Of a stretch of 64,000 nucleotides of DNA, positions 4,466 through 16,038 are shown in pieces. How positions within the stretch are numbered: the first letter of the stretch is position 1; every line of letters starts with the position of its first letter. A model generated the notes under the pieces. That model did no database searches. It worked only from the letters and a program-made list of their open reading frames with translations, and had not been told where the DNA came from. A program made the translations under genes and the position numbers. This stretch comes from an uncultured Lachnospiraceae bacterium. GTDB lineage: Bacteria > Bacillota > Clostridia > Lachnospirales > Lachnospiraceae. Where the stretch lies: NCBI GenBank assembly GCA_910585605.1, contig CAJUFL010000011.1, positions 3,313 through 67,312 of the forward strand, given 5' to 3'.

Positions 4466-6472
4466 ATGAACAAATTATTATCCATGTCCCACGTGGACAA
4501 ACGCAGCATTGAAGGGAAATTGATAAAAACGGTTCTACTGCTGCTCTATATATCTTTAGGTACACTAGGGATTATTTCTATTTATCTGAATTATTCCAGT
4601 ACAACAAAGTTATTAAAAAAGAATATGGCGGAATCCGCAAAAATTGCCGCAGAAAAAGCACAATGGGAAATAACAGCGTTTACCAATACCGTCTCCGAGA
4701 TGGGATGTGATCCCCGACTTTCCGGTAATCTTTCCACTGAAAAAATAAAAGAACTGACCGAAGAAAAGACAGCATATTACAGCTTAGAACGAATCAATGT
4801 TCTTGGTACAGACGGTCTCAGCATCTTTGACGGCAAAGATTACAATGAACGTGCATATTTTCAGGCAGCCATGAAAGGACAGACTTATGTCAGTGAACCG
4901 TTAATCAGCAAGATTACAGGAGAACTTACTATTATAGTAGCAGCACCAATCTGGAAAGACGGTAAGGCGGGGTCTGAGGTCTGCGGTGTCATATACATTG
5001 TACCAAACCCCGATTTTCTGAATGAAATTGTAAAAAGTATCCATATAAGCAAGAATAGTTTTGCATACATGATCGATGCAAACGGAACCGTAATTGCACA
5101 TACCGATACCGATAAAGTCAAAAATATGGAGAATACCATCAACAATGCCAAATCAGATTCCTCCCTTAAAAAACTTGCTTCCCTTGAGGAAAAAATGACA
5201 AAAGGTGAATCCGGATTTCAAACATACCGCTACAAAGGTAAAAAGAAATTTCTGGCATATGCACCGGTTAACGGCAGCAATGGATGGAGCTTTGCCATTG
5301 ACGCACCTATCAGTAATTTTATGCTGGACACAATTGTAGGTATCATCATTGTAATTGCCACTATTTTAATATCTACCTTTATTGGTTATGTCCGTGCTCA
5401 GAAACTTGCCTCAGGTATCGGAATGCCTATCAGACAATGTGCCGACCGTCTGGTTCTTCTTGCCCAGGGCGACTTAAATTCTCCCGTCCCCCAAGGTGCT
5501 GATGACGACGAGACAGGCATTCTTTCCAATGCCACTCAGGAACTGTTAGAAGGTATTAACACAATCATTAAAGATATTGATTATACATTAAGTGAAATGG
5601 CAGGCGGTAACTTTAATATTCACTCATCGGCTCCAGACAGCTATATTGGGGATTTTGCCGCAATCCTGGAATCTTTGAGAGAGATTAAGCACTCTCTTAC
5701 AACAGCACTCTCCGGAATTAAGGATGCCTCCGATCAGGTTGCTGCCGGTTCCGGACAGCTTGCAGACAGTGCTACCGATCTGGCAACCGGTGCAACGGAA
5801 CAAGCTGGTGTTGTAGAAGAATTATTCGCCACTGTCACGGAAATAACAAATCATTCATACGAAAATTCAGAGACAGCATCCAAGACCAGCAACAGGGCAA
5901 GGAAGATCGGCGAAGAAGCCAGAAACAGTTCCGTTCAGATGAATGAAATGAACCAGGCAATGCAGCGCATCAGCAATGCCTCACAGGAAATAAATAATAT
6001 TATCGCAAGTATTGATGCGATAGCTGCCCAGACAAATCTGCTATCTCTCAATGCTTCTATCGAAGCTGCAAGAGCAGGAGAAAGCGGTGCCGGTTTTGCA
6101 GTTGTAGCCAATGAAATCGGACAGCTTGCAAAACAAAGTGCAGAAGCTGTTGATATTACCAGAACATTGATTCAAACGGCTTTATCAGAAGTTGAAAACG
6201 GTACTTTAATCGTAGATAAAACTACGGTATCCCTTAATCAGGTTATTGAACAGATTGAAGATATCGTTAAAGATATTGAAGCCGTTTCCCAGGCAAATAA
6301 AAACCAGGCTTCCAGCATGAAAGAACTGAATCAGGGAATTGAACAGATTTCCGGTGTGGTAGAAAACAATTCCGCTACAGCTGAAGAATGCTCTGCCACC
6401 AGTGAAGAGCTTTCGGCCCAGGCATATACATTAGATGATTTAATCGGAAACTTTAAACTATCCGAATCATAA
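4466..6472 (+). CDS. Methyl-accepting chemotaxis protein (Cache-type sensor, HAMP, MA domain)
   Basis: N-terminal TM helix, periplasmic Cache-like domain, second TM helix, then the conserved signalling hairpin [39 protein letters not shown]. Confidence 0.92.
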
Positions 6473-7103: not shown

Positions 7104-8447
7104 TTATTTTATTTTTTCTTCCATTATACTTTGCAGCCTGTCGAGCTGTTCCTTTACATCCTTGCCTTCCCATATAGCATCAAAAGCAATTCCGCTCTCT
7201 GTCAGATAATCCCCTAATACCATAACCTTCGGCACCGGTTTGGAGTTCAGGTACTGTGCATAGATAACTGCCTGCATACTGTCAAATCCTTCTTTTTGAT
7301 TGATAACAGGCAATTTTCCGTTCCCTGCATACTGCTTATCCTGGCTGGCATAACTTAAGTACAGGGCAAACATATTACCGGCTGCCTTATTCCTCCCATA
7401 TGGGTTCACAAAAGCCCCATAAGTTGTGGAGATAGTAGTAGAGGAAAGCTCAGCAGTCAGACTGGGGACATAAGAAATCTGATAATTGGTTTGTTCCGTC
7501 TCACTTCCCTCTTCCGGCTCCTCACTGCTGTTATCCTCTGTATCTTCAGGATTCCCCACAGTCTGATCTGCTTTCTGATTCATCTCATAAAGAACCGGCA
7601 GAATATCGGATTTACAAAGCCCAAGAACCAAAGTTCCATCCTTAATACGGTTCATGACCGTATCATGGGAAATATTATTCTTATTCATCCACAAATATGC
7701 ACTAAGTGACTGAAAATACTCCATAGCTGCAACGGACTGTTCACCGTTAATCTTAAATGAAGACGCCTCATCCCCATTTTCTCCAAAAAAATCTGCATAA
7801 GAAGCTAAAAACATTGTATTAACATAAGGATCTGCCACATCCCACCGAAACACTGCCTTTGTAGAGCCTGTATCTTCATAATCATCCAGAAATGCCAGAA
7901 TATCATCTACGGATGCAGGGGCATTCTTTAAAAGATTGGCATCATATACAAGACAATATGTATCAAAATACACAGGATATCCATATTGCTTATTTTTATA
8001 AGTCAATGCCTTTTTTGCCACTTCTGGATAATTGGTCTTCCAAAACTCTTCATCAAACCCTGTATTTTCTTCTGCCATCCCACTATTTTTCGCAAATTCC
8101 AACTGGTCATTTCCCATCAGGTAAACATCCGGTCCATTCCCACTCTGGTTAGCCTGATTCATATCTTCAAAAAAACTCACACCATCATAATAAACCAGAT
8201 TGACTTTGATGGAATATTCTTTTTCAAATCTTTTTGCAGCTGTCTCTAACCATGCCTTATCTGAATCGCTTGTATACCAGCAATCCACAGAATCAGAAGC
8301 TGCCTGCTGCTTCCATATTTTCATCATTCCTTCATAGCCAGCCGGAAGCACAGTTTCTTCAGTGTTCTCTTCTTTTCTACCACAGCCGGATAAAAGAGCG
8401 ATCATCAGCATAATTACAAGTAAAAAAGATACCCTGCGAATTTTCAT
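7104..8447 (-). CDS. Extracellular solute-binding lipoprotein (MalE/family-1-like), orphan
   Basis: Lipobox LLSGC. The length and composition fit ABC substrate-binding proteins. An acidic insert is present (NPEDTEDNSSEEPEEGSETEQ). No permease or ATPase gene is adjacent. Confidence 0.7.
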   Translation of the reverse strand: MKIRRVSFLLVIMLMIALLSGCGRKEENTEETVLPAGYEGMMKIWKQQAASDSVDCWYTSDSDKAWLETAAKRFEKEYSIKVNLVYYDGVSFFEDMNQANQSGNGPDVYLMGNDQLEFAKNSGMAEENTGFDEEFWKTNYPEVAKKALTYKNKQYGYPVYFDTYCLVYDANLLKNAPASVDDILAFLDDYEDTGSTKAVFRWDVADPYVNTMFLASYADFFGENGDEASSFKINGEQSVAAMEYFQSLSAYLWMNKNNISHDTVMNRIKDGTLVLGLCKSDILPVLYEMNQKADQTVGNPEDTEDNSSEEPEEGSETEQTNYQISYVPSLTAELSSTTISTTYGAFVNPYGRNKAAGNMFALYLSYASQDKQYAGNGKLPVINQKEGFDSMQAVIYAQYLNSKPVPKVMVLGDYLTESGIAFDAIWEGKDVKEQLDRLQSIMEEKIK

Positions 8448-8473
8448 AATCTTATTCTCCTTAAGTCTGTAAC

Positions 8474-9364
8474 TTAAAATAATGGTTCTTTTAGGATAGC
8501 AGTTCCGATACCTTTTTCAGTAAAGAACTCAAGAAGCAGGCAATGCTCCACACGTCCATCTAAAACATGGACTCTGGACACTCCATTTTCGATGGCATCA
8601 ATACAGTTGGTCAATTTGGGAAGCATACCTCCTCCCACAACCCCTTTTTCAATAAATGCCTTTGCCTCATTAATATCCATTTCGGAAATCAGGGTATTCC
8701 GGTCATTGGGATCCACAAAAACACCTTCTATATCAGTGAGAAATACCAGTTTTTCTGCCGCAATTTCTTTTGCCACTGCACAGGCCGCATCGTCCGCATT
8801 GATATTATAACTCTCAAAATCTTCTGAAGAGCCAATGGGAGCGATAACCGGAATAAAATCATTTTCAATCAAGGTATCTAAAATCTGACCATTGACGGAC
8901 TTTACTTCCCCTACATATCCAATATCTTTACCACCCGGAAATCTCTTTGTTACGGTCAAAAGACCGGCATCCTTTCCACTGATTCCCACAGCATTCAGAC
9001 CTAATTTCTGCATCATCTGCACAAGACCTTTATTTACCTTGGAAAGCACCATCTCCGCAATTTCCATGGTCTGTGCATCCGTCACACGCAGTCCGTTGAT
9101 AAACTCCGGTTCCTTTCCGATCATCTCCACCCATTTGCTGATCTCCTTGCCACCACCATGTACGATAATTGGCTTAAGTCCAATCAGCTTCAATAATGCA
9201 ACATCCTTAATGACATTATATTTTAAATCCTCATCTAACATGGCACTTCCACCATATTTTACAACAATTTTCTTTCCGTTAAATTTCTGTATATACGGCA
9301 ATGCCTCTATCAGAGTCTGTGCTTTTAAAATTATCTGTTCCATATTATTATTTTTGTTAATCAT
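8474..9364 (-). CDS. argB: Acetylglutamate kinase
   Basis: [18 protein letters not shown] and [13 protein letters not shown] motifs of the amino-acid kinase family. It follows argC. Confidence 0.95.
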
Positions 9365-9401: not shown

Positions 9402-10442
9402 TCACGGAAACATTGGAACCTGATCAAGACCCATTGTCTCTGGCAGACCAAACATCAAATTCATATTCTGCACTGCCTGACCCGCAGCTCCCTTTACCAG
9501 ATTATCAAGTGCTCCCATCACGATCACACGTTTTGTCCTATCATCAATCTTAAAATTGATATCCACAAAATTACTTCCCTCTACCCATCTGGTCTCCGGA
9601 GGCACATCTTTATCAAGAATTCTTATGAAATACTCTTTCTCATAATATTTATCATAGATTGCCTTTAATTCTTCATATGTATAATTTTTTGTAAGATTAC
9701 CATAGGCTGTCACCAAAATTCCCCTGTTCATCGGCACCAGATGAGGTGTAAAATTCAGAAGAATCTCCTTTCCACAGGCATATCCTAACTGCTCTTCAAT
9801 TTCGGGTATATGGCGGTGTGTTGTAACACCATATGCCTTTATATTTTCATTCACTTCACAATAAAGGTTATTAATCTTTGCCCCTCTGCCGGCTCCGGAA
9901 GTTCCTGATTTTGCATCTATGATAATACTATCTGTATCAATAACACCCTCTTTTACCAACGGATAAAGAGATAAAATAGAACATGTGGTATAACAGCCGG
10001 GATTCGCCACCAAACGTTTTCCCTGAATCTCGTTTCTGTTTATCTCACACAGACCATATACTGCCTCTTTAATATATTCTGGAGACTTATGTTCTATTCC
10101 ATACCATTTTTCATAGACAGAAACATCTTTTATCCTGAAATCTGCACTCAAGTCCACAATTTTAACTCTGGATAAAATATCTTCATTTACCAAAGAAGCA
10201 CATAACCCCTGAGGTGTAGCAGTAAAAATAATGTCTGCCCTGTCTGCAAGCTCCTCCATATTATCATCCAGACACTTTTCATCTACAATCTCAAACATAT
10301 TGCCAAATACCTGATAGTATTTTTGATCAATATAGCTTCTAGAACCATACCATACAATCTCCGCTTCTTTATGTCCTAATAATAATCTCACCAATTCCTG
10401 TCCTGCATAACCTGTAGAACCGATAATACCTGCCTTTATCAT
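9402..10442 (-). CDS. argC: N-acetyl-gamma-glutamyl-phosphate reductase
   Basis: NAD-binding GSTGYAGQELVRLL at the N-terminus and the catalytic Cys context ANPGCYTT. Confidence 0.95.
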   Translation of the reverse strand: MIKAGIIGSTGYAGQELVRLLLGHKEAEIVWYGSRSYIDQKYYQVFGNMFEIVDEKCLDDNMEELADRADIIFTATPQGLCASLVNEDILSRVKIVDLSADFRIKDVSVYEKWYGIEHKSPEYIKEAVYGLCEINRNEIQGKRLVANPGCYTTCSILSLYPLVKEGVIDTDSIIIDAKSGTSGAGRGAKINNLYCEVNENIKAYGVTTHRHIPEIEEQLGYACGKEILLNFTPHLVPMNRGILVTAYGNLTKNYTYEELKAIYDKYYEKEYFIRILDKDVPPETRWVEGSNFVDINFKIDDRTKRVIVMGALDNLVKGAAGQAVQNMNLMFGLPETMGLDQVPMFP

Positions 10443-10669
10443 AATGCTATCCTTCCTTACATTGTTGTAACTGCTTTTGCCATATTATATTTTCCCGCCA
10501 CATTATTCAAAAAATACATATGGATTCAAACCCGAATTCTTATTATAACATTGTTTTATTCTAATGTATAGATACAGAGTCAGGATTTTTCTGTTTATAA
10601 TTATACATATATTCTGTATATTATGCAATAGATTTCTTATTTTTTCTTAATTTTTCTGTCGAAAAAGGG

Positions 10670-10731: not shown

Positions 10732-11943
10732 ATGAAAGAAAAAGTTATTTTAGCTTATTCCGGCGGACTGGATACTACCGCCATCATCCCTTGGCTAAAG
10801 GAGAATTATGATTATGATGTCATCTGTGTGTGCATCGATGTGGGACAGGAAAGTGAATTAGAAGGTCTGGAAGAAAGAGCTATTTCCAGCGGAGCTTCCA
10901 AATGTTATGTATTAGATGTTGTTGACGAATTCTGTGATGATTACATTGTTCCCACCGTGCAGGCTGGTGCCGTATATGAGAATAAATATTTACTGGGTAC
11001 TTCCATGGCAAGACCTTTGATCGGCAAAGTTTTAGTGGATATCGCCCATAAAGAAGGTGCAACCGCTATCTGTCATGGTGCAACCGGCAAGGGTAATGAT
11101 CAGGTTCGTTTTGAACTTGCCATCAAAGCATTCGGACCGGAGCTTAAGATCATTGCAGCATGGAGACAGGATGCCTGGACCATGAATTCCCGCGAAGAAG
11201 AGATCGAATACTGCCGTCAGCATGGTATCAACCTTCCATTCTCCGCAGATTCCTCTTACAGCCGTGACCGTAACTTATGGCATATCAGCCATGAGGGTCT
11301 GGAACTGGAAGACCCTGCTAACGAACCAAACTATGACCATTTATTAGTACTTGGTACATATCCTGAAAAAGCTCCAGATGAAGCGGAATACGTAACCCTT
11401 ACTTTCGAAAAAGGTGTGCCCAAGTCCGTAAATGGCAAAGAAATGAAAGTTTCTGACATTATCCGTGAATTAAACCGCTTAGGCGGCAAACATGGAATCG
11501 GCATTGTGGATATCGTGGAAAACCGCGTAGTGGGAATGAAGTCCCGCGGTGTGTACGAGACTCCCGGTGGAACAATCTTAATGGAAGCCCATGACCAGTT
11601 GGAAGAACTGATTCTGGACCGCGAAACACTGGCATTTAAAAAGACGATTGGAGATAAATTTGCAGATGTGGTTTATGAAGGAAAGTGGTGGTCACCTCTT
11701 CGCGAGGCATTACAGGCATTTGTCACCTCTACACAGGAACGTGTGACCGGTGAGGTTAAATTCAAACTGTACAAAGGCAACATCATCAAAGCCGGTACTA
11801 CCTCTCCGTATTCCCTATATTCCGAGTCACTGGCAAGCTTTACTACCGGAGATCTGTACGACCACAAGGATGCAGAAGGATTTATCAACCTGTTCGGGCT
11901 TTCTACAAAAGTACGTGCAATGCTGGATGCCCAAAATAAATAG
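10732..11943 (+). CDS. argG: Argininosuccinate synthase
   Basis: [12 protein letters not shown]-binding motif, [13 protein letters not shown] and [10 protein letters not shown]. Full length, 403 aa. Confidence 0.97.
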
Positions 11944-12013
11944 AACAACTGCCAAATTAACATATGAATTTCTATACATTTTCTAAATATGCTATCTTTA
12001 CAAAATAATATTT

Positions 12014-12068
12014 AAAAACCTCAATGTAAAGCATATTAATTCTAAAATATGCTGCTTTGAGGTTTTTT
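12014..12068 (+). terminator. Rho-independent terminator of argG
   Basis: AAAACCTCAA pairs with TTGAGGTTTT, with an inner AGCATAT/ATATGCT stem, followed by a T-run (ggTTTTTTg). Confidence 0.75.
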
Positions 12069-12216
12069 GCTCATTATTCGATGCTACTCCTTTCTGAACA
12101 AATCCCTAATAACTGGTCATTCATCCAAAAAACTGGTTATCTGTCCGAAAAATGATAATTGATAAAAATTTATGATATAATGAATTTACTAATTTCGGAA
12201 GGAAAAGGAGAGCTTT

Positions 12217-13188
12217 ATGAATGAATTTAATGTGAACCCATTTATATTAAAAGAAAAATCCCATAGTTTTGAAGCTATCAGCAACAACATGCGAACCTCT
12301 ACAGACCAAATCCAAAAAATTTCCATGCAATTAAAAATAACTATGAGCTCCAACATTACAAAAAGTCTGAATACTGTAATTGGCAATCTGGATAATGAGA
12401 CAAAAAGCTGTAAACAGCTCTATGATCAATTATTGCAAATAGCGGCAGCTTATGAAAACTATGAACAAAAAATTTGCAATGAATACAAAAATACACAAAA
12501 TAATGATACTCCCCAAAAACATAATGGTAATGAGGAGGAAAAAAACCCTGATGATATGAGCTATGAAGAATATCTGCAATACAGGTACGAAAACGCTGTA
12601 GATGAAAATACAAGAAAGTTATATGAGAAATATATGGATAATATCAATATCAAGGATGATGACTATGAAGATACAGCATTTTATAATCCATTTTGGAATC
12701 ACATAAAGTATAACGCAGAAGATGATGCAGAAAATGTACGCGGAATCGGATGCACATACTACCATGAGACAGGACATTTAATAGATGATCAATCTGATTG
12801 GTTTGGAAATACGTCAACTGACGGCAGCTACGACTTTTATGAAAAATTAAATGAAGATGTGGATAATTATATCAACAATATCATGGAAGAAAAGGGATAT
12901 ACTGACATAGAAGATGCCTATAGTGATTTTTCAAATTGGCTCAACGAAGATGGTAATAATAAGAATGGTGTTTCCGATCTTGTAAATGGGATAACCGACG
13001 GAAAAGCCTGCGGAGGCTGGGGACATGCTGATAATTACTATAATTCAAATTCCATACCTAAGGAAGCTTTCGCACATTTTTTTGAAGCCGGAATGTCCGC
13101 TGATCCTACTAAACTGGATTACATTAAGGAAGTATTCCCCTCTGCGTATGCTGAATACCAAAAAATGATTGAAGATGAATTGAATTAA
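12217..13188 (+). CDS. Putative secreted or polymorphic-toxin-like zinc metallopeptidase (helical WXG100/LXG-like N-domain + HExxH zincin C-domain)
   Basis: Strong RBS (AAAGGAGAG) and no signal peptide. Residues 1-90 are heptad-like and helical. An acidic, low-complexity linker follows. HETGH lies at aa 183-187 (nt 12763-12777) and a later PKEAFAHFFE at aa 281-290. The DNA is very AT-rich. Confidence 0.55.
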   Translation: MNEFNVNPFILKEKSHSFEAISNNMRTSTDQIQKISMQLKITMSSNITKSLNTVIGNLDNETKSCKQLYDQLLQIAAAYENYEQKICNEYKNTQNNDTPQKHNGNEEEKNPDDMSYEEYLQYRYENAVDENTRKLYEKYMDNINIKDDDYEDTAFYNPFWNHIKYNAEDDAENVRGIGCTYYHETGHLIDDQSDWFGNTSTDGSYDFYEKLNEDVDNYINNIMEEKGYTDIEDAYSDFSNWLNEDGNNKNGVSDLVNGITDGKACGGWGHADNYYNSNSIPKEAFAHFFEAGMSADPTKLDYIKEVFPSAYAEYQKMIEDELN

Positions 13189-13203
13189 AGAAAGGGACAA
13201 ATA

Positions 13204-13797
13204 ATGAAAAATTTAAATAATATATTTGAAATTGATTGGACACTGCTCAAAAACGATAAACTTTATGACGGTAAAAGCCTTATATGGGAAGATAATAAAT
13301 TAACGGAAATCAAGGATAAGCTAGATAAAAATAATATCCATGAAGGCAGATTAGGCGAATTTCCGATTAAAAAAGTCAATATCAGCATGGGACTGGATCT
13401 ATTTTTACCAGTTGTTAAGAAAAACAAAGATTTAATAAATACTCACGATATTATTGACACCCCAAAGCTTTATCAGATGTTATCTGAAAATAGAATTCTA
13501 AAGATAGAGCGATTGGAAAACAACGAATATCACACAAAAATCCTTGAGTATAATAATTTGGAATCTATGCAAAATATTTCTACTACAGATAATAAGGAGG
13601 CTCTGCAAATATATGAAGGCATATTAAATACTGAAAAATATGGTGCTATGCTGGGCATTATAACTTTTCTACCCGGAACAAAGGATACTGCATTCAGCTT
13701 TACATATGCAGGAACAGGTAATTATACAGATATAAAAATGGAAAAAGACATTATATTAAAAAGATTAATAAGGAGTATTAAAAAATATGATAAATAA
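13204..13797 (+). CDS. Hypothetical cytoplasmic protein (candidate immunity or partner of the upstream zincin)
   Basis: Starts 15 nt after the upstream stop with an AAAGGGA RBS. I recognise no motif. Same AT-rich composition. Confidence 0.55.
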   Translation: MKNLNNIFEIDWTLLKNDKLYDGKSLIWEDNKLTEIKDKLDKNNIHEGRLGEFPIKKVNISMGLDLFLPVVKKNKDLINTHDIIDTPKLYQMLSENRILKIERLENNEYHTKILEYNNLESMQNISTTDNKEALQIYEGILNTEKYGAMLGIITFLPGTKDTAFSFTYAGTGNYTDIKMEKDIILKRLIRSIKKYDK

Positions 13798-14245
13798 GAA
13801 AAAGACTTTTATCAAATGGGTATTTTTTTTCCTACTTATTTTGATGATCAGCGGATGTCAATCTGATAAAGAAACCAGTTTAAAAAACATAGGAGAATTA
13901 AAAAAAATAACAGTAACCTTAAAAGATAAAGCAGATATTACATATACTGTAACAATAGACTTAAAAAAACAAACAAAAACGCTATACAAATTTACCAAAA
14001 ATACAGAAGAAACCACAGAAATTTTTCCCGTAAGTGATGACTTTTTACTATTTATTAAAGAAAACCTCTTGACGGAATTAACTAACTCCTCTAAAAATAA
14101 CCAGTCCTCGGATACATTACCTGTATTATGGAGAATAGAGATTAGAACAGAAGAAGAAAATTATCATATTAACGGATATGATGAATTTCCTTCCTATTGG
14201 GAGACACTATTAAATTATATGGATATATCTCTTGATTCCCTTTAA
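13787..14245 (+). CDS. Hypothetical lipoprotein
   Basis: Overlaps the upstream ORF by 11 nt. Signal plus lipobox: KWVFFFLLILMISGCQS. An AAGGAG lies upstream. Confidence 0.6.
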   Translation: MINKKKTFIKWVFFFLLILMISGCQSDKETSLKNIGELKKITVTLKDKADITYTVTIDLKKQTKTLYKFTKNTEETTEIFPVSDDFLLFIKENLLTELTNSSKNNQSSDTLPVLWRIEIRTEEENYHINGYDEFPSYWETLLNYMDISLDSL

Positions 14246-14256
14246 TTATTTATCCC

Positions 14257-16038
14257 TTACAAAGCTTGCTCTGGCAGAATTACTGTTACCTGTGTTCCCT
14301 TACCAGGCTCACTCTCTACCTGAATCTCTCCATGATGCATCAGGACAACATGCTTGACAATGGATAATCCAAGACCGGTTCCGCCCGCTGATCTGGAATG
14401 GCTCTTGTCCACCCTGTAAAACCGTTCAAAAATTCTGTCGGTTTCTTCTGCCGGAATACCGATACCGGTATCTTTCACAGAAATAATAATTTTATGCGTA
14501 TCATCTATTTCCTTTTTGTAAAACGCGAGTATAACTGTTCCACCCGCATGATTATATTTAATCCCGTTATCACAAAGATTATATAAAACCTCCTCTATCA
14601 TGGAGGGTATGCCTTCCATCACAACATCCTCTCCTGTAATCTGAACAGATACATTTCCTGTCCTTCCAGAAAGACTTAACCGCTCTATCACCTGCTTAGC
14701 CAGGTCTTTGAGATTAATTTTTTGTGTATGGCAGGATAGGTGTCCTTCGTCTAATTTAGATAAAAATATAATATCATTTATCAGTTCTATCAGTCTGCCT
14801 GCTTCTTCATAGATATTTCTTGCAAATCCGGGAATGTCTTCCGTTTTTACTATCCCGTTCATGATGATCTCTGCCACACCCGATATAGAAGTCAATGGTG
14901 TCTTTAATTCATGTGACACATTAGAAGTAAATTCCCTTCGAAGCTGTTCTCTTTTTTCTTTTTCTGTTTCATCCAGAACGATGATAACTGCTCCTGCCAC
15001 CTGTTTTTCCTGTTTATTTCCCATTGATGCCAATATTTCTTCTGTTATCCCATCTTCTTTGGTATCCTCTAACAGAATCGGGTTGGAAAAAATATGAAAA
15101 ACTTTACCCCTGGTCTTTCGTATTTTCTGATTTCTCGCACCCTTTAAAGCTTCCTCTAAAGCCTCTTTAAGCACACCACTCCTGTCAAAATCAGCTGCAT
15201 GTTTTCCTGTATAATCTATGTCCTTAGAACCCTCAAAAAGTTCTACTACCGCCGGATTATAGGATAACACATTCCCCTTTTTATCCAATACAAGAAATCC
15301 CTCATTCATATGCTCTGTAAGAGCCTGAAATTTTGCCTGCTGATTCTTAAGATCTTCTATCTGCCGGTCGATCAGAATATTCTGTTTCCGTATCCTCCTT
15401 AGAAGAGGAACGAGTTCCTCGTATTCCTCATCCATTTCACCATACAATAAATCCATATTATTGATAGGTTCTACTATACTTTTTGCTGCCCGCTTAGACA
15501 TAAAATAAGATAAAATGATGATCAGAAAAATTAAAAAGGCTGTCGGCTGAAGCATTGCCAGCACAATAGCCAATATTGTGTTATAGGCACTGGATATCCG
15601 GAGCACCGTACCGTCTGTTAACTCCACTGCGTAATAGAGAGTCTGTTCATCTAATGTACCGGAATACCGCACGGTATACCCTTCTCCGTTCTCCAGTGCC
15701 TTTTTTATCTCTTTTCTGTTTTTATGGTTCTCCATACTTTTTGCATCTACATCTGAATCAAACAATACATCACCTGTTTTATCAATCCAGGTAATCCGTT
15801 TTTTATGTTCACCGGCTCCACTGGTTCTTTGCTTCATAAGCATATATCGGTTAAAATTGATAAGATATTCTTCCCCTGCATAATCAATACCATATGCAAT
15901 ATACTCCGCTTCTGTCTTAAGTTCTGCCTTTATCTGATGTTCAAAATAATCATATAAGATACCCACTATTATTAAATAAGAAACAAATAATGTTACCATG
16001 GACACCCAGAATGTATTTTTAAATATACGTTTTATCAT
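14257..16038 (-). CDS. PhoR-like sensor histidine kinase (TM, PAS, HisKA, HATPase_c)
   Basis: H-box SNVSHELKTPLTSI, N-box NLCDNGIKYN, G-boxes KDTGIGIP and GGTGLGLSI. A PAS-like segment is present (LTEHMNEGFLVLDKKGNVLSYN). Confidence 0.88.
   Translation of the reverse strand: MIKRIFKNTFWVSMVTLFVSYLIIVGILYDYFEHQIKAELKTEAEYIAYGIDYAGEEYLINFNRYMLMKQRTSGAGEHKKRITWIDKTGDVLFDSDVDAKSMENHKNRKEIKKALENGEGYTVRYSGTLDEQTLYYAVELTDGTVLRISSAYNTILAIVLAMLQPTAFLIFLIIILSYFMSKRAAKSIVEPINNMDLLYGEMDEEYEELVPLLRRIRKQNILIDRQIEDLKNQQAKFQALTEHMNEGFLVLDKKGNVLSYNPAVVELFEGSKDIDYTGKHAADFDRSGVLKEALEEALKGARNQKIRKTRGKVFHIFSNPILLEDTKEDGITEEILASMGNKQEKQVAGAVIIVLDETEKEKREQLRREFTSNVSHELKTPLTSISGVAEIIMNGIVKTEDIPGFARNIYEEAGRLIELINDIIFLSKLDEGHLSCHTQKINLKDLAKQVIERLSLSGRTGNVSVQITGEDVVMEGIPSMIEEVLYNLCDNGIKYNHAGGTVILAFYKKEIDDTHKIIISVKDTGIGIPAEETDRIFERFYRVDKSHSRSAGGTGLGLSIVKHVVLMHHGEIQVESEPGKGTQVTVILPEQAL

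Follow-up and report, generated by a model that had tools for sequence, protein, structure and literature searches.

An orphan hairpin-zincin gene block in a Lachnospiraceae genome: a probable toxin-immunity cassette of a clostridial type VII secretion system

In the 64,000-nucleotide stretch of an uncultured Lachnospiraceae bacterium analysed here (the window; GenBank assembly GCA_910585605.1, contig CAJUFL010000011.1, positions 3,313 to 67,312), a forward-strand gene at 12217..13188 encodes a 323-residue protein, in which an N-terminal helical hairpin is joined by an acidic linker to a C-terminal domain bearing a zinc-peptidase motif. Two small genes follow on the same strand, at 13204..13797 (197 residues) and 13787..14245 (152 residues). 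The locus raises the question of whether the protein is an exported peptidase toxin, by which route it would leave the cell, and what its two neighbours would do. The first-pass annotation, made without database searches, had read the gene as a zincin with a trafficking domain in a toxin cassette, and this interpretation is largely supported: the block 12217-14245 is probably an orphan cassette of toxin and immunity genes that belongs to a type VII secretion system (T7SS) of the clostridial kind. This reading draws on the domain anatomy, the conserved catalytic residues, the modular reuse of both domains, the synteny of the partner genes and close homologues lying inside T7SS clusters; export, toxicity, substrate, compartment of action and the roles of the partners are what we infer.

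The zincin domain and its relatives

The gene is defined by its open reading frame (ORF) and translation, by 60 homologues and by an AlphaFold2 (AF2) model. The homologues retrieved with the 323-residue protein are unannotated or 'hypothetical', apart from one named 'YukE' by JGI, and come mostly from metagenome-assembled genomes of Lachnospiraceae and Oscillospiraceae; their C-domains are well conserved and their N-domains very divergent. The AF2 model, built from a 50-sequence alignment (mean pLDDT 89), contains two antiparallel helices (residues 8-39 and 45-96) that form the hairpin (residues 1-96, 12217..12504), followed by the linker (residues 97-112, 12505..12552) and a C-domain of compact alpha/beta fold (residues 113-323, 12553..13185), which reaches pLDDT 93.8 and pTM 0.92 when modelled alone. 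The linker, recognised as acidic from the start, is disordered in the model (pLDDT below 50 at residues 97-105), varies in length and sequence among homologues and is 69% identical to that of a sister taxon, against 95% for the C-domain. No hydrophobic signal-like segment is present at the N-terminus by direct reading of the sequence, in agreement with the earlier statement that a signal is lacking. Compared with Pfam, NCBIfam, PADLOC, PHROGs and PDB sequences, the three proteins of the block gave nothing above noise and reached no curated cut-off.

The two catalytic segments named in the first-pass annotation are borne out by the translation. HETGH occupies residues 183-187 (12763..12777) in the context YYHETGHLIDD and is predicted to contain the zinc-binding and catalytic residues (His183, Glu184 and His187), and PKEAFAHFFE spans residues 281-290, of which EAFAHFFE (residues 283-290, 13063..13086) lies within the AF2 helix 279-292. 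Across 50 homologues, Tyr156, Asp170, His183, Glu184, Gly186, His187, Asp190, Asp214, Ser253 and Asp254 are invariant, as are Tyr274, Glu283, Phe285, Ala286, Phe289, Glu290, Phe307 and Pro308. In 110 diverse representatives (20-37% identity), HExxHxxD, an SD pair, a GH pair and E-x-x-A are still invariant. Because these residues are unchanged across both sets, the zincin motifs are not a chance occurrence.

When 1.84 billion cluster representatives (clusters at 50% identity) were scored with a C-domain profile, 2295 of them matched at E ≤ 1e-3 and 1177 at E ≤ 1e-10. The domain is C-terminal in all 150 of the 2295 matches that were listed, in proteins of about 200 to 2005 residues, the longest representative having 2005. 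The N-termini of the 110 representatives include Phage_min_cap2 (21), Phage_Mu_F (13), VG15 (3), RTX repeats (4) and one LXG-like domain; a Ser/Thr-rich type is also found among the zincin relatives. Neighbourhoods fetched around homologues carry labels from L003 to L067, and P0008 and P0202 denote individual homologue proteins. A 607-residue relative in L020 has an LXG-like N-terminus (E 2e-4, below the cut-off), a relative in L060 has a Mu-F N-terminus, and a 346-residue relative in L029 has a WXG100-like N-terminus that matches PF06013 end to end (E 7e-4, 20.3 bits against a cut-off of 27.3). This 346-residue protein is identical in L029-L036 and L061, where its gene is at about 9614-10654. 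Its genomes have been assigned to many genera (Clostridium, Coprococcus, Eisenbergiella, Brotaphodocola and Ruminococcoides), and it is encoded near a 1984-residue LPD11/SNF2 polyvalent protein, which suggests that it is carried on a widely shared mobile element. The RTX (HemolysinCabind) repeats lie upstream of the zincin domain in their 4 of the 110 representatives; as judged from these sequences, they imply delivery by type I secretion (T1SS) in other lineages.

To which zincins the domain belongs was addressed with profiles and with structure. No Pfam zincin model matched the C-domains of the 110 representatives at E ≤ 0.001, except for one noise-level Peptidase_M13 (E 8e-4). The Tox-MPTase profiles, proposed earlier as a check, returned no match for the window protein at E up to 10, and these families are absent both from the 25 most frequent of the 79 families matched by the 50 homologues and from all 16 families matched by the 110 representatives; Tox-MPTase4, the T7SS-linked zincin of Zhang et al., was therefore rejected. 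When the PDB was searched by Foldseek, with the model of the entire protein and with that of the C-domain, the only whole-domain match was to anthrax lethal factor, in its catalytic domain (about 234 columns, TMq 0.43-0.52, probability up to 0.99-1.00, E 0.06-0.2). Of the 29 PDB matches ranked highest for the C-domain model, 27 were lethal factor and two were ArdC; ArdC and minimal zincins ranked below lethal factor with poor TM-scores, and an ImmA/IrrE-type regulator or an ArdC/SprT-type protease was rejected, such proteins appearing only among low-ranked structural matches with poor TM-scores. The C-domain family profile also aligned with lethal-factor chains (E 0.084), the 86 aligned residues taking in the strands that precede HExxH, and with neurolysin and thimet oligopeptidase around HExxH. 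Among predicted viral structures, the C-termini of phage minor capsid (MuF) proteins were the best matches (TMq 0.82, E 6e-9).

The resemblance to lethal factor (MEROPS M34, ATLF PF07737, ALF-MPTase) that had been proposed for the C-domain is thus seen in the motifs, with the HExGHxxDD-type motif and the later Glu helix in common; it is remote in fold and does not extend to the profile. In the lethal-factor sequence a later helix carries an E-x-F-A-x-x-F pattern, the same as that of the window protein. However, the identity is 12-14%, the window protein has about 50 more residues (helices in residues 207-259) between HExxH and the Glu helix, and ATLF is not matched above threshold, with no match for the window protein and matches for 2 of 50 homologues (best E 0.038). 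By any sequence criterion the C-domain is not a member of M34/ATLF; on its model it is an uncharacterised gluzincin-type zincin, remotely lethal-factor-like. By gluzincin analogy, Glu283 is probably the third zinc ligand, and Tyr274 may be the counterpart of the catalytic Tyr of lethal factor. The assignment of Glu283 relies on fold-level similarity and on the lethal-factor sequence, because a direct phmmer search of the PDB with the C-terminal 73 residues, aimed at placing the EAFAHFFE helix, found no lethal-factor match.

In the classification of polymorphic toxins by Zhang et al. 2012, ALF-MPTase toxins are listed only with PVC and T2SS delivery, not with T7SS, and WXG/LXG-borne metallopeptidase toxins were already predicted in the form of HopH1, Tox-MPTase1 and Tox-MPTase4 (PMC3482391). 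The same zincin domain as in the window is C-terminal on many MuF/minor-head proteins, in the manner of the MuF toxins of temperate phages described by Jamet et al. 2017, of which 20% are reported to carry a metallopeptidase domain, be it of this zincin family or of another (PMC5576092). Unlike those toxins, the window protein lacks a MuF part and lies outside any prophage. A prophage or MuF remnant was accordingly rejected, there being no MuF domain or PHROG match and the neighbours being housekeeping genes; a defence system was rejected as well, PADLOC giving only coiled-coil noise.

The N-terminal hairpin and its link to type VII secretion

The hairpin, predicted as such before any model was available, finds its best PDB matches in Foldseek among EsxA/WXG100 proteins. 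It superposes on EsxA 2vrz_B with a TMt of 0.84 and a root-mean-square deviation (rmsd) of 1.8 Å; values for EsxA of S. aureus, Geobacillus and S. agalactiae are 0.75-0.84, and those for EsxA/WXG100 proteins including B. anthracis and M. tuberculosis 0.7-0.84 at an rmsd of about 2 Å. A profile of 37 N-domains, which share about 21% mean column identity, matches WXG100 structures end to end (3gvm, E 1.2e-5; 3o9o, 1.6e-5; B. anthracis EsxB, 1e-4; S. aureus EsxA, 3e-4; CFP-10, 8e-4), E-values that are inflated by composition, since designed coiled coils score higher than the WXG100 proteins in the same search. The relation was approached from the other side with a WXG100 test profile of seven small proteins of the T7SS-linked L063, L016 and L022, four of them Pfam-annotated WXG100 proteins of L063 and three recruited by jackhmmer from those four. 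In one step, the window toxin was the best match to this profile among the 223 ORFs of the window (E 8e-4, residues 3-89), with a four-residue gap exactly at the WxG turn and YxxxE aligned in both. Reciprocally, of the four L063 proteins that Pfam annotates as WXG100, three are picked up by the N-domain profile.

The sole strongly conserved feature of the N-domains is a tyrosine at position 79 (34 of 37) with Glu or Asp at position 83 (also 34 of 37). Position 86 is mostly hydrophobic, being Ile, Leu or Val in 24 of 37 and in 33 when Ala, Met and Cys are counted, and the window hairpin reads Y79-x3-E83-x2-I86-x3-Y90. The longer pattern of the C-terminal helix of WXG100 proteins is HxxxD/ExxhxxxH. 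For the same helix, YxxxD/E is cited as the conserved motif in PMC10801868, and YxxxE stands at the aligned position in the WXG100 proteins encoded by the L063, L016 and L022 clusters. The window copy, Y79-E-N-Y-E83 near the end of helix 2 (12451..12465), is by its conservation a candidate export motif.

In size, helix-turn-helix hairpin fold, end-to-end profile matches and YxxxE, the N-domain resembles EsxA/WXG100 (PF06013); unlike them, it has a shorter, variable turn in place of WxG, stays below the Pfam cut-off and is fused to an enzyme, whereas WXG100 proteins stand alone. The original assignment to a WXG100/LXG type therefore keeps its WXG100-like part, in fold and in end-to-end profiles, and loses the LXG part. 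Judged on its sequence, the hairpin would work like a WXG100 protein and is probably homologous to this family, with two defining marks lacking, a WxG motif and a score above the Pfam threshold; it does not belong to the LXG domains.

Close homologues connect the hairpin-zincin architecture with secretion genes. In L063, the gene for P0008, a homologue of 57% identity over its full length with the same two downstream genes, directly follows a complete T7SS cluster, all on one strand: EssC (1664 residues, FHA and FtsK_SpoIIIE), LytTR, an LRR protein, YukD, four WXG100 genes, a trypsin/FHA membrane protein and a PP2C phosphatase, then the zincin and proteins of 190 and 147 residues. In L016, EssC lies about 4 kb from the zincin homologue, with YukD, PP2C, an FHA protein and a WXG100 gene; in L019, EssC, FHA proteins and two DUF4176 genes adjoin hairpin toxins; and in L022, WXG100 genes come just after the partner gene. 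Variants of the T7SS with FHA-bearing ATPases, FHA partners and PPM phosphatases have been described in Clostridia (PMC11217815), and DUF4176 proteins are T7SSb toxin chaperones (PMC12478183, PMC10801868). As a separate observation, L026, L027, L037-L039, L043, L045 and L046 encode an FtsK_SpoIIIE protein of about 1460-1540 residues upstream of the zincin gene, immediately so in most; no FHA domain was detected in these proteins.

Other homologues, like that of the window, are orphan cassettes in unrelated chromosomal sites, and no essC, yukD or WXG100 genes occur within 10 kb of those in L007, L010, L064, L065 and L067. In L067 (8683-14869), the three-gene cassette, an HTH gene and several unannotated ORFs are inserted between tsf and pyrH, interrupting an otherwise conserved rpsB-tsf-pyrH-frr block; because of this insertion the cassette, as far as gene order can tell, is shown to be mobile. 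The window block has a comparable island character, with a low G+C content (31.0% against 38.4% for the whole window), unrelated contexts elsewhere and faster divergence than the flanking arg genes. It is flanked by argG (10732-11943) and a convergent histidine-kinase/response-regulator pair, in a neighbourhood of arg, nad and two-component genes. In the public assembly collection an identical 323-residue protein is indexed in 49 blocks, and among 23 contigs inspected the neighbourhood is the same wherever it is listed; GCA_964018435.1, GCA_948603825.1 and ERZ14650998 are among the assemblies with this contig. As the identical protein recurs in this way, the toxin gene is real and stably inherited. 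In one of these assemblies, GCA_948603825.1 (L003:12041-13826, reverse strand; window 14257-16038), the adjoining histidine kinase is called as two ORFs of 346 and 261 residues and not as one of 593, which a frameshift, a pseudogene or an assembly error could explain.

Several observations weigh against the reading as a T7SS cassette. The WxG turn motif is absent, the turn positions 40-46 being variable with no conserved Trp or Gly, which also confirms the early remark that canonical WxG and LxG are missing. PF06013 gives no match for the window protein at E up to 10, and sub-threshold matches for 3 of 50 homologues (best E 0.0076). The LXG model PF04740 is not matched, the hairpin is about 96 residues long and has no LxG motif, and no curated cut-off was reached for WXG100, LXG or ATLF; helical hairpins, moreover, are common. 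Within the 64-kb window there is no T7SS gene, EssC-size ORF, WXG100 gene or second hairpin protein, and upstream of the toxin gene there is no partner gene of the Lap or WXG type. On the enzymatic side, the Foldseek match to lethal factor has an E of 0.06-0.2 and a TM-score of about 0.5. In about a third of the wider zincin family the domain is attached to MuF head proteins of phages, whose action is intracellular, so the cell-envelope target considered below is not a property of the whole family. Finally, the presence of two different partner genes makes the assignment of immunity ambiguous.

The orphan location and the lack of secretion genes in the window would also fit a stranded or decaying cassette, whose matching T7SS was lost or never present and which persists as an immunity island beside a non-exported toxin gene. 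Truncated forms do occur: P0202, a 109-residue protein identical to the window N-domain, is found in other assemblies, and L024 (9965-10492) encodes a 175-residue C-terminal zincin fragment adjoining a lipoprotein gene; both could be decayed cassettes or assembly breaks. The window ORF, however, is intact with all catalytic residues present, its identical sequence is found in many independent samples, the sister taxon keeps three intact genes in the same place with a C-domain 95% identical, and LXG toxins are commonly encoded at orphan loci remote from the T7SS cluster (PMC10765036). Stranding is thus very unlikely for the window copy.

Partner genes and modular reuse

The small downstream ORFs pointed out at the beginning both exist, and each has a distinct character. 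The 197-residue protein (13204..13797) has no hydrophobic segment and no Pfam, NCBIfam, PDB, PADLOC or PHROG match, and a homologue search with it returned only nine unannotated matches; by its synteny with the zincin gene it is a candidate cytoplasmic immunity or neutralising partner. The 152-residue protein (13787..14245) has a signal peptide and a lipobox, ISGC, with Cys24 at 13856-13858, as well as weak LPAM_1 and SA0632-family lipoprotein matches, and is a candidate extracytoplasmic immunity protein. No known immunity family is matched by either protein, a hit to Imm12 (E 0.029) being at noise level.

Iterative searches within the fetched loci, to which the partner synteny is confined, place a homologue of the 197-residue protein immediately downstream of the zincin gene in 13 distinct neighbourhoods, including the LXG-fused version, and lipobox-bearing lipoprotein homologues downstream of it in 13 distinct neighbourhoods. 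Every locus with a hairpin-fused zincin has at least one partner homologue directly downstream. Both partners are found in the window, L066, L007/L014, L012, L015, L016, L063, L064 and L067, the soluble partner only in L017, L023, L065, the LXG-type L020/L021 and L022, and the lipoprotein only in L010 (two copies), L013, L018, L019 and L024. In the same loci, neither partner was found with the distant zincin clades (MuF-type and the 346-residue WXG100-type). Given this distribution, both partners track the toxin domain and not the targeting domain. Relative to the sister taxon (L066), argB, argC and argG are 97-99% identical, the zincin protein 91% (N-domain 87.5%, C-domain 95%), the lipoprotein 91% and the 197-residue protein 86%, the gene for the last being the fastest-evolving of the block. 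The soluble protein may be a cytoplasmic inhibitor and the lipoprotein a surface immunity protein.

These partners bear on a further explanation, that of an intracellular zincin related to the MuF-borne proteases and acting without T7SS export, for example in phage-host conflict or abortive infection. The N-domain would then serve oligomerisation or regulation, and the 197-residue protein would be an antitoxin-like inhibitor. The MuF fusions among about a third of the family representatives, the phage proteins as best structural matches overall, the lack of T7SS genes within 64 kb and the soluble partner directly downstream are all consistent with such a role. Yet none of the three proteins has a PADLOC or PHROG match, the match between N-domain and WXG100 proteins is reciprocal with YxxxE retained, close homologues of identical architecture lie inside T7SS operons, and a lipoprotein partner makes little sense in a purely cytoplasmic system, which together render an intracellular role improbable.

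Both halves of the window protein are, by sequence comparison, reused independently. Reuse of the hairpin was assessed only within the fetched loci; against a 5.8-billion-protein database, the N-domain profile found only P0202, a truncated copy of the query, because the hairpin is too short and divergent for a database of that size. In L019, a 448-residue protein (7916-9262, reverse strand, with 7227-7900, also reverse) combines an N-terminal hairpin with a Gly-rich C-terminal region, for which no Pfam match was found; its gene is divergent from the zincin gene, preceded by two DUF4176 genes and next to EssC, and the protein is probably a further T7SS toxin of another kind. Within the L063 T7SS cluster, a 316-residue protein (12696-13646, forward strand) joins the hairpin to a different HExxH (HELRH), and a stand-alone 129-residue hairpin (5287-5676, forward strand) lies between yukD and WXG100 genes. 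In L007, a 557-residue Mbeg1/lipase-like protein (12858-14531, forward strand), encoded four genes downstream of the zincin homologue, carries the hairpin at its C-terminus (residues 467-557, 39.8 bits). This protein is a candidate reverse-arrangement T7SS lipase, analogous to the reverse-orientation lipases TslA/TslM of S. aureus (PMC10730906, PMC13560087); its hairpin is shorter than the LXG-like domain of TslA, and it is a neighbour of a homologue, outside the window. As the zincin sits behind several N-domains and the hairpin on several other domains, the polymorphic-toxin grammar claimed in the first-pass annotation is present, such modular reuse being its defining feature (PMC3482391).

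The arrangement is that of the LXG/WXG100-type T7SS polymorphic toxins (such as TelA-C from Streptococcus intermedius, and EsaD and TspA from S. aureus; the class was defined by Zhang et al. 2012, PMC3482391), with a helical N-terminal targeting domain, a C-terminal toxin and a downstream candidate immunity gene, with loci either inside T7SS clusters or orphan, and with targeting and toxin domains shuffled. In contrast to them, the window protein has a single hairpin of about 96 residues and not an LXG domain of about 200, it lacks LxG and WxG as well as upstream Lap-type genes, and its toxin domain is a zincin.

The same material has been weighed against a different function, in which a T7SS-exported metalloprotease is not antibacterial and instead processes substrates or surface proteins, remodels the envelope or cleaves host proteins in the gut; the downstream proteins would then have no immunity function, one serving as chaperone or inhibitor and the other as surface partner or substrate. 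Lethal factor, the closest structural relative, acts on host proteins, and the cassette can end a core T7SS operon, right after conserved machinery genes (L063). Literature searches found no experimentally characterised T7SS peptidase toxin, and a 2023 review of T7SSb toxins contains 'peptidase' nowhere and 'protease' only in its reference list. On the other hand, the zincin is shuffled among MuF, RTX, LXG and WXG-like carriers, the hairpin is also joined to other domains of toxin-like character, the unit of toxin and partner moves between unrelated sites, and the partners evolve fast and are sometimes duplicated; shuffling, a mobile toxin-partner unit and fast-evolving partners are hallmarks of toxin-immunity modules (PMC3482391). 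A non-antibacterial role is unlikely on this balance, and the toxin-immunity reading is retained.

Regarding expression of the cassette, reading of the sequence places a GGAGAG ribosome-binding site ahead of the toxin gene, 4 nt from its ATG. The top-scoring sigma-70-like match in 11900-14400 (ATGATA, 18 nt, TG-TATAAT; 10/12, extended -10) is at 12152..12181 on the forward strand, upstream of the cassette; such sites are no more numerous in the region than chance would give, and this one is a candidate only.

Proposed mode of action and meaning

In the proposed course of events, the 323-residue protein would be made in the cytoplasm, where the 197-residue protein probably blocks the protease before export. 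The hairpin (residues 1-96, with YxxxE) would probably pair with a second hairpin, from its own copy or from a WXG100 protein of a T7SS locus, and the resulting four-helix bundle would be recognised by an EssC-type ATPase and exported. The C-domain would act as a zinc endopeptidase, with His183 and His187 binding zinc, Glu184 as catalytic base and Glu283 probably as third ligand, and would damage a neighbouring bacterium via cleavage of a protein target. The 152-residue lipoprotein would probably block incoming toxin at the outer face of the membrane, and both downstream genes would thus protect the producer and its kin.

The site of action may be the cell envelope, as for TelC, because of the lipoprotein partner and the absence of a middle or translocation domain. 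The absence of the middle domain separates the extracellularly acting TelC from the cytoplasm-acting TelA and TelB (PMC10801868). Like TelC-TipC, the window toxin has no middle domain and a partner anchored outside the membrane; unlike it, the window protein is a predicted peptidase, TelC being a lipid II phosphatase, and an additional cytosolic partner is encoded. A broader and more tentative proposal, doubtful at present, is that one zincin family is common to T7SS substrates, MuF head proteins and RTX proteins, and that its T7SS clade acts at the envelope with two-tier immunity (a cytosolic inhibitor in the producer and a surface lipoprotein against incoming toxin) and a minimal, WxG-less hairpin as export tag at either end of the protein.

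The T7SS toxins characterised to date comprise nucleases, NADases, lipid II phosphatases, lipases and proteins that depolarise membranes. The layout of the window cassette is itself known, being the canonical T7SS polymorphic-toxin arrangement. What appears to be new, as far as the searches indicate, is a large zincin family that has no model in the copies of Pfam, NCBIfam, PHROGs and PADLOC searched, a minimal WxG-less hairpin apparently used in both orientations, and the pairing of putative cytosolic and lipoprotein partners. The cassette is a compact example from gut and rumen Clostridia, in which T7SS variants have been recognised recently (PMC11217815). Its zincin family (about 2300 clusters at 50% identity) would span three delivery routes, T7SS, phage capsids and RTX/T1SS, so that defining its substrate would inform several fields. 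Meanwhile, the minimal hairpin tag, which a lipase-like protein carries C-terminally, is relevant to the recognition of T7SS substrates, and the paired cytosolic and lipoprotein partners may offer a direct handle on the compartment in which the toxin acts.

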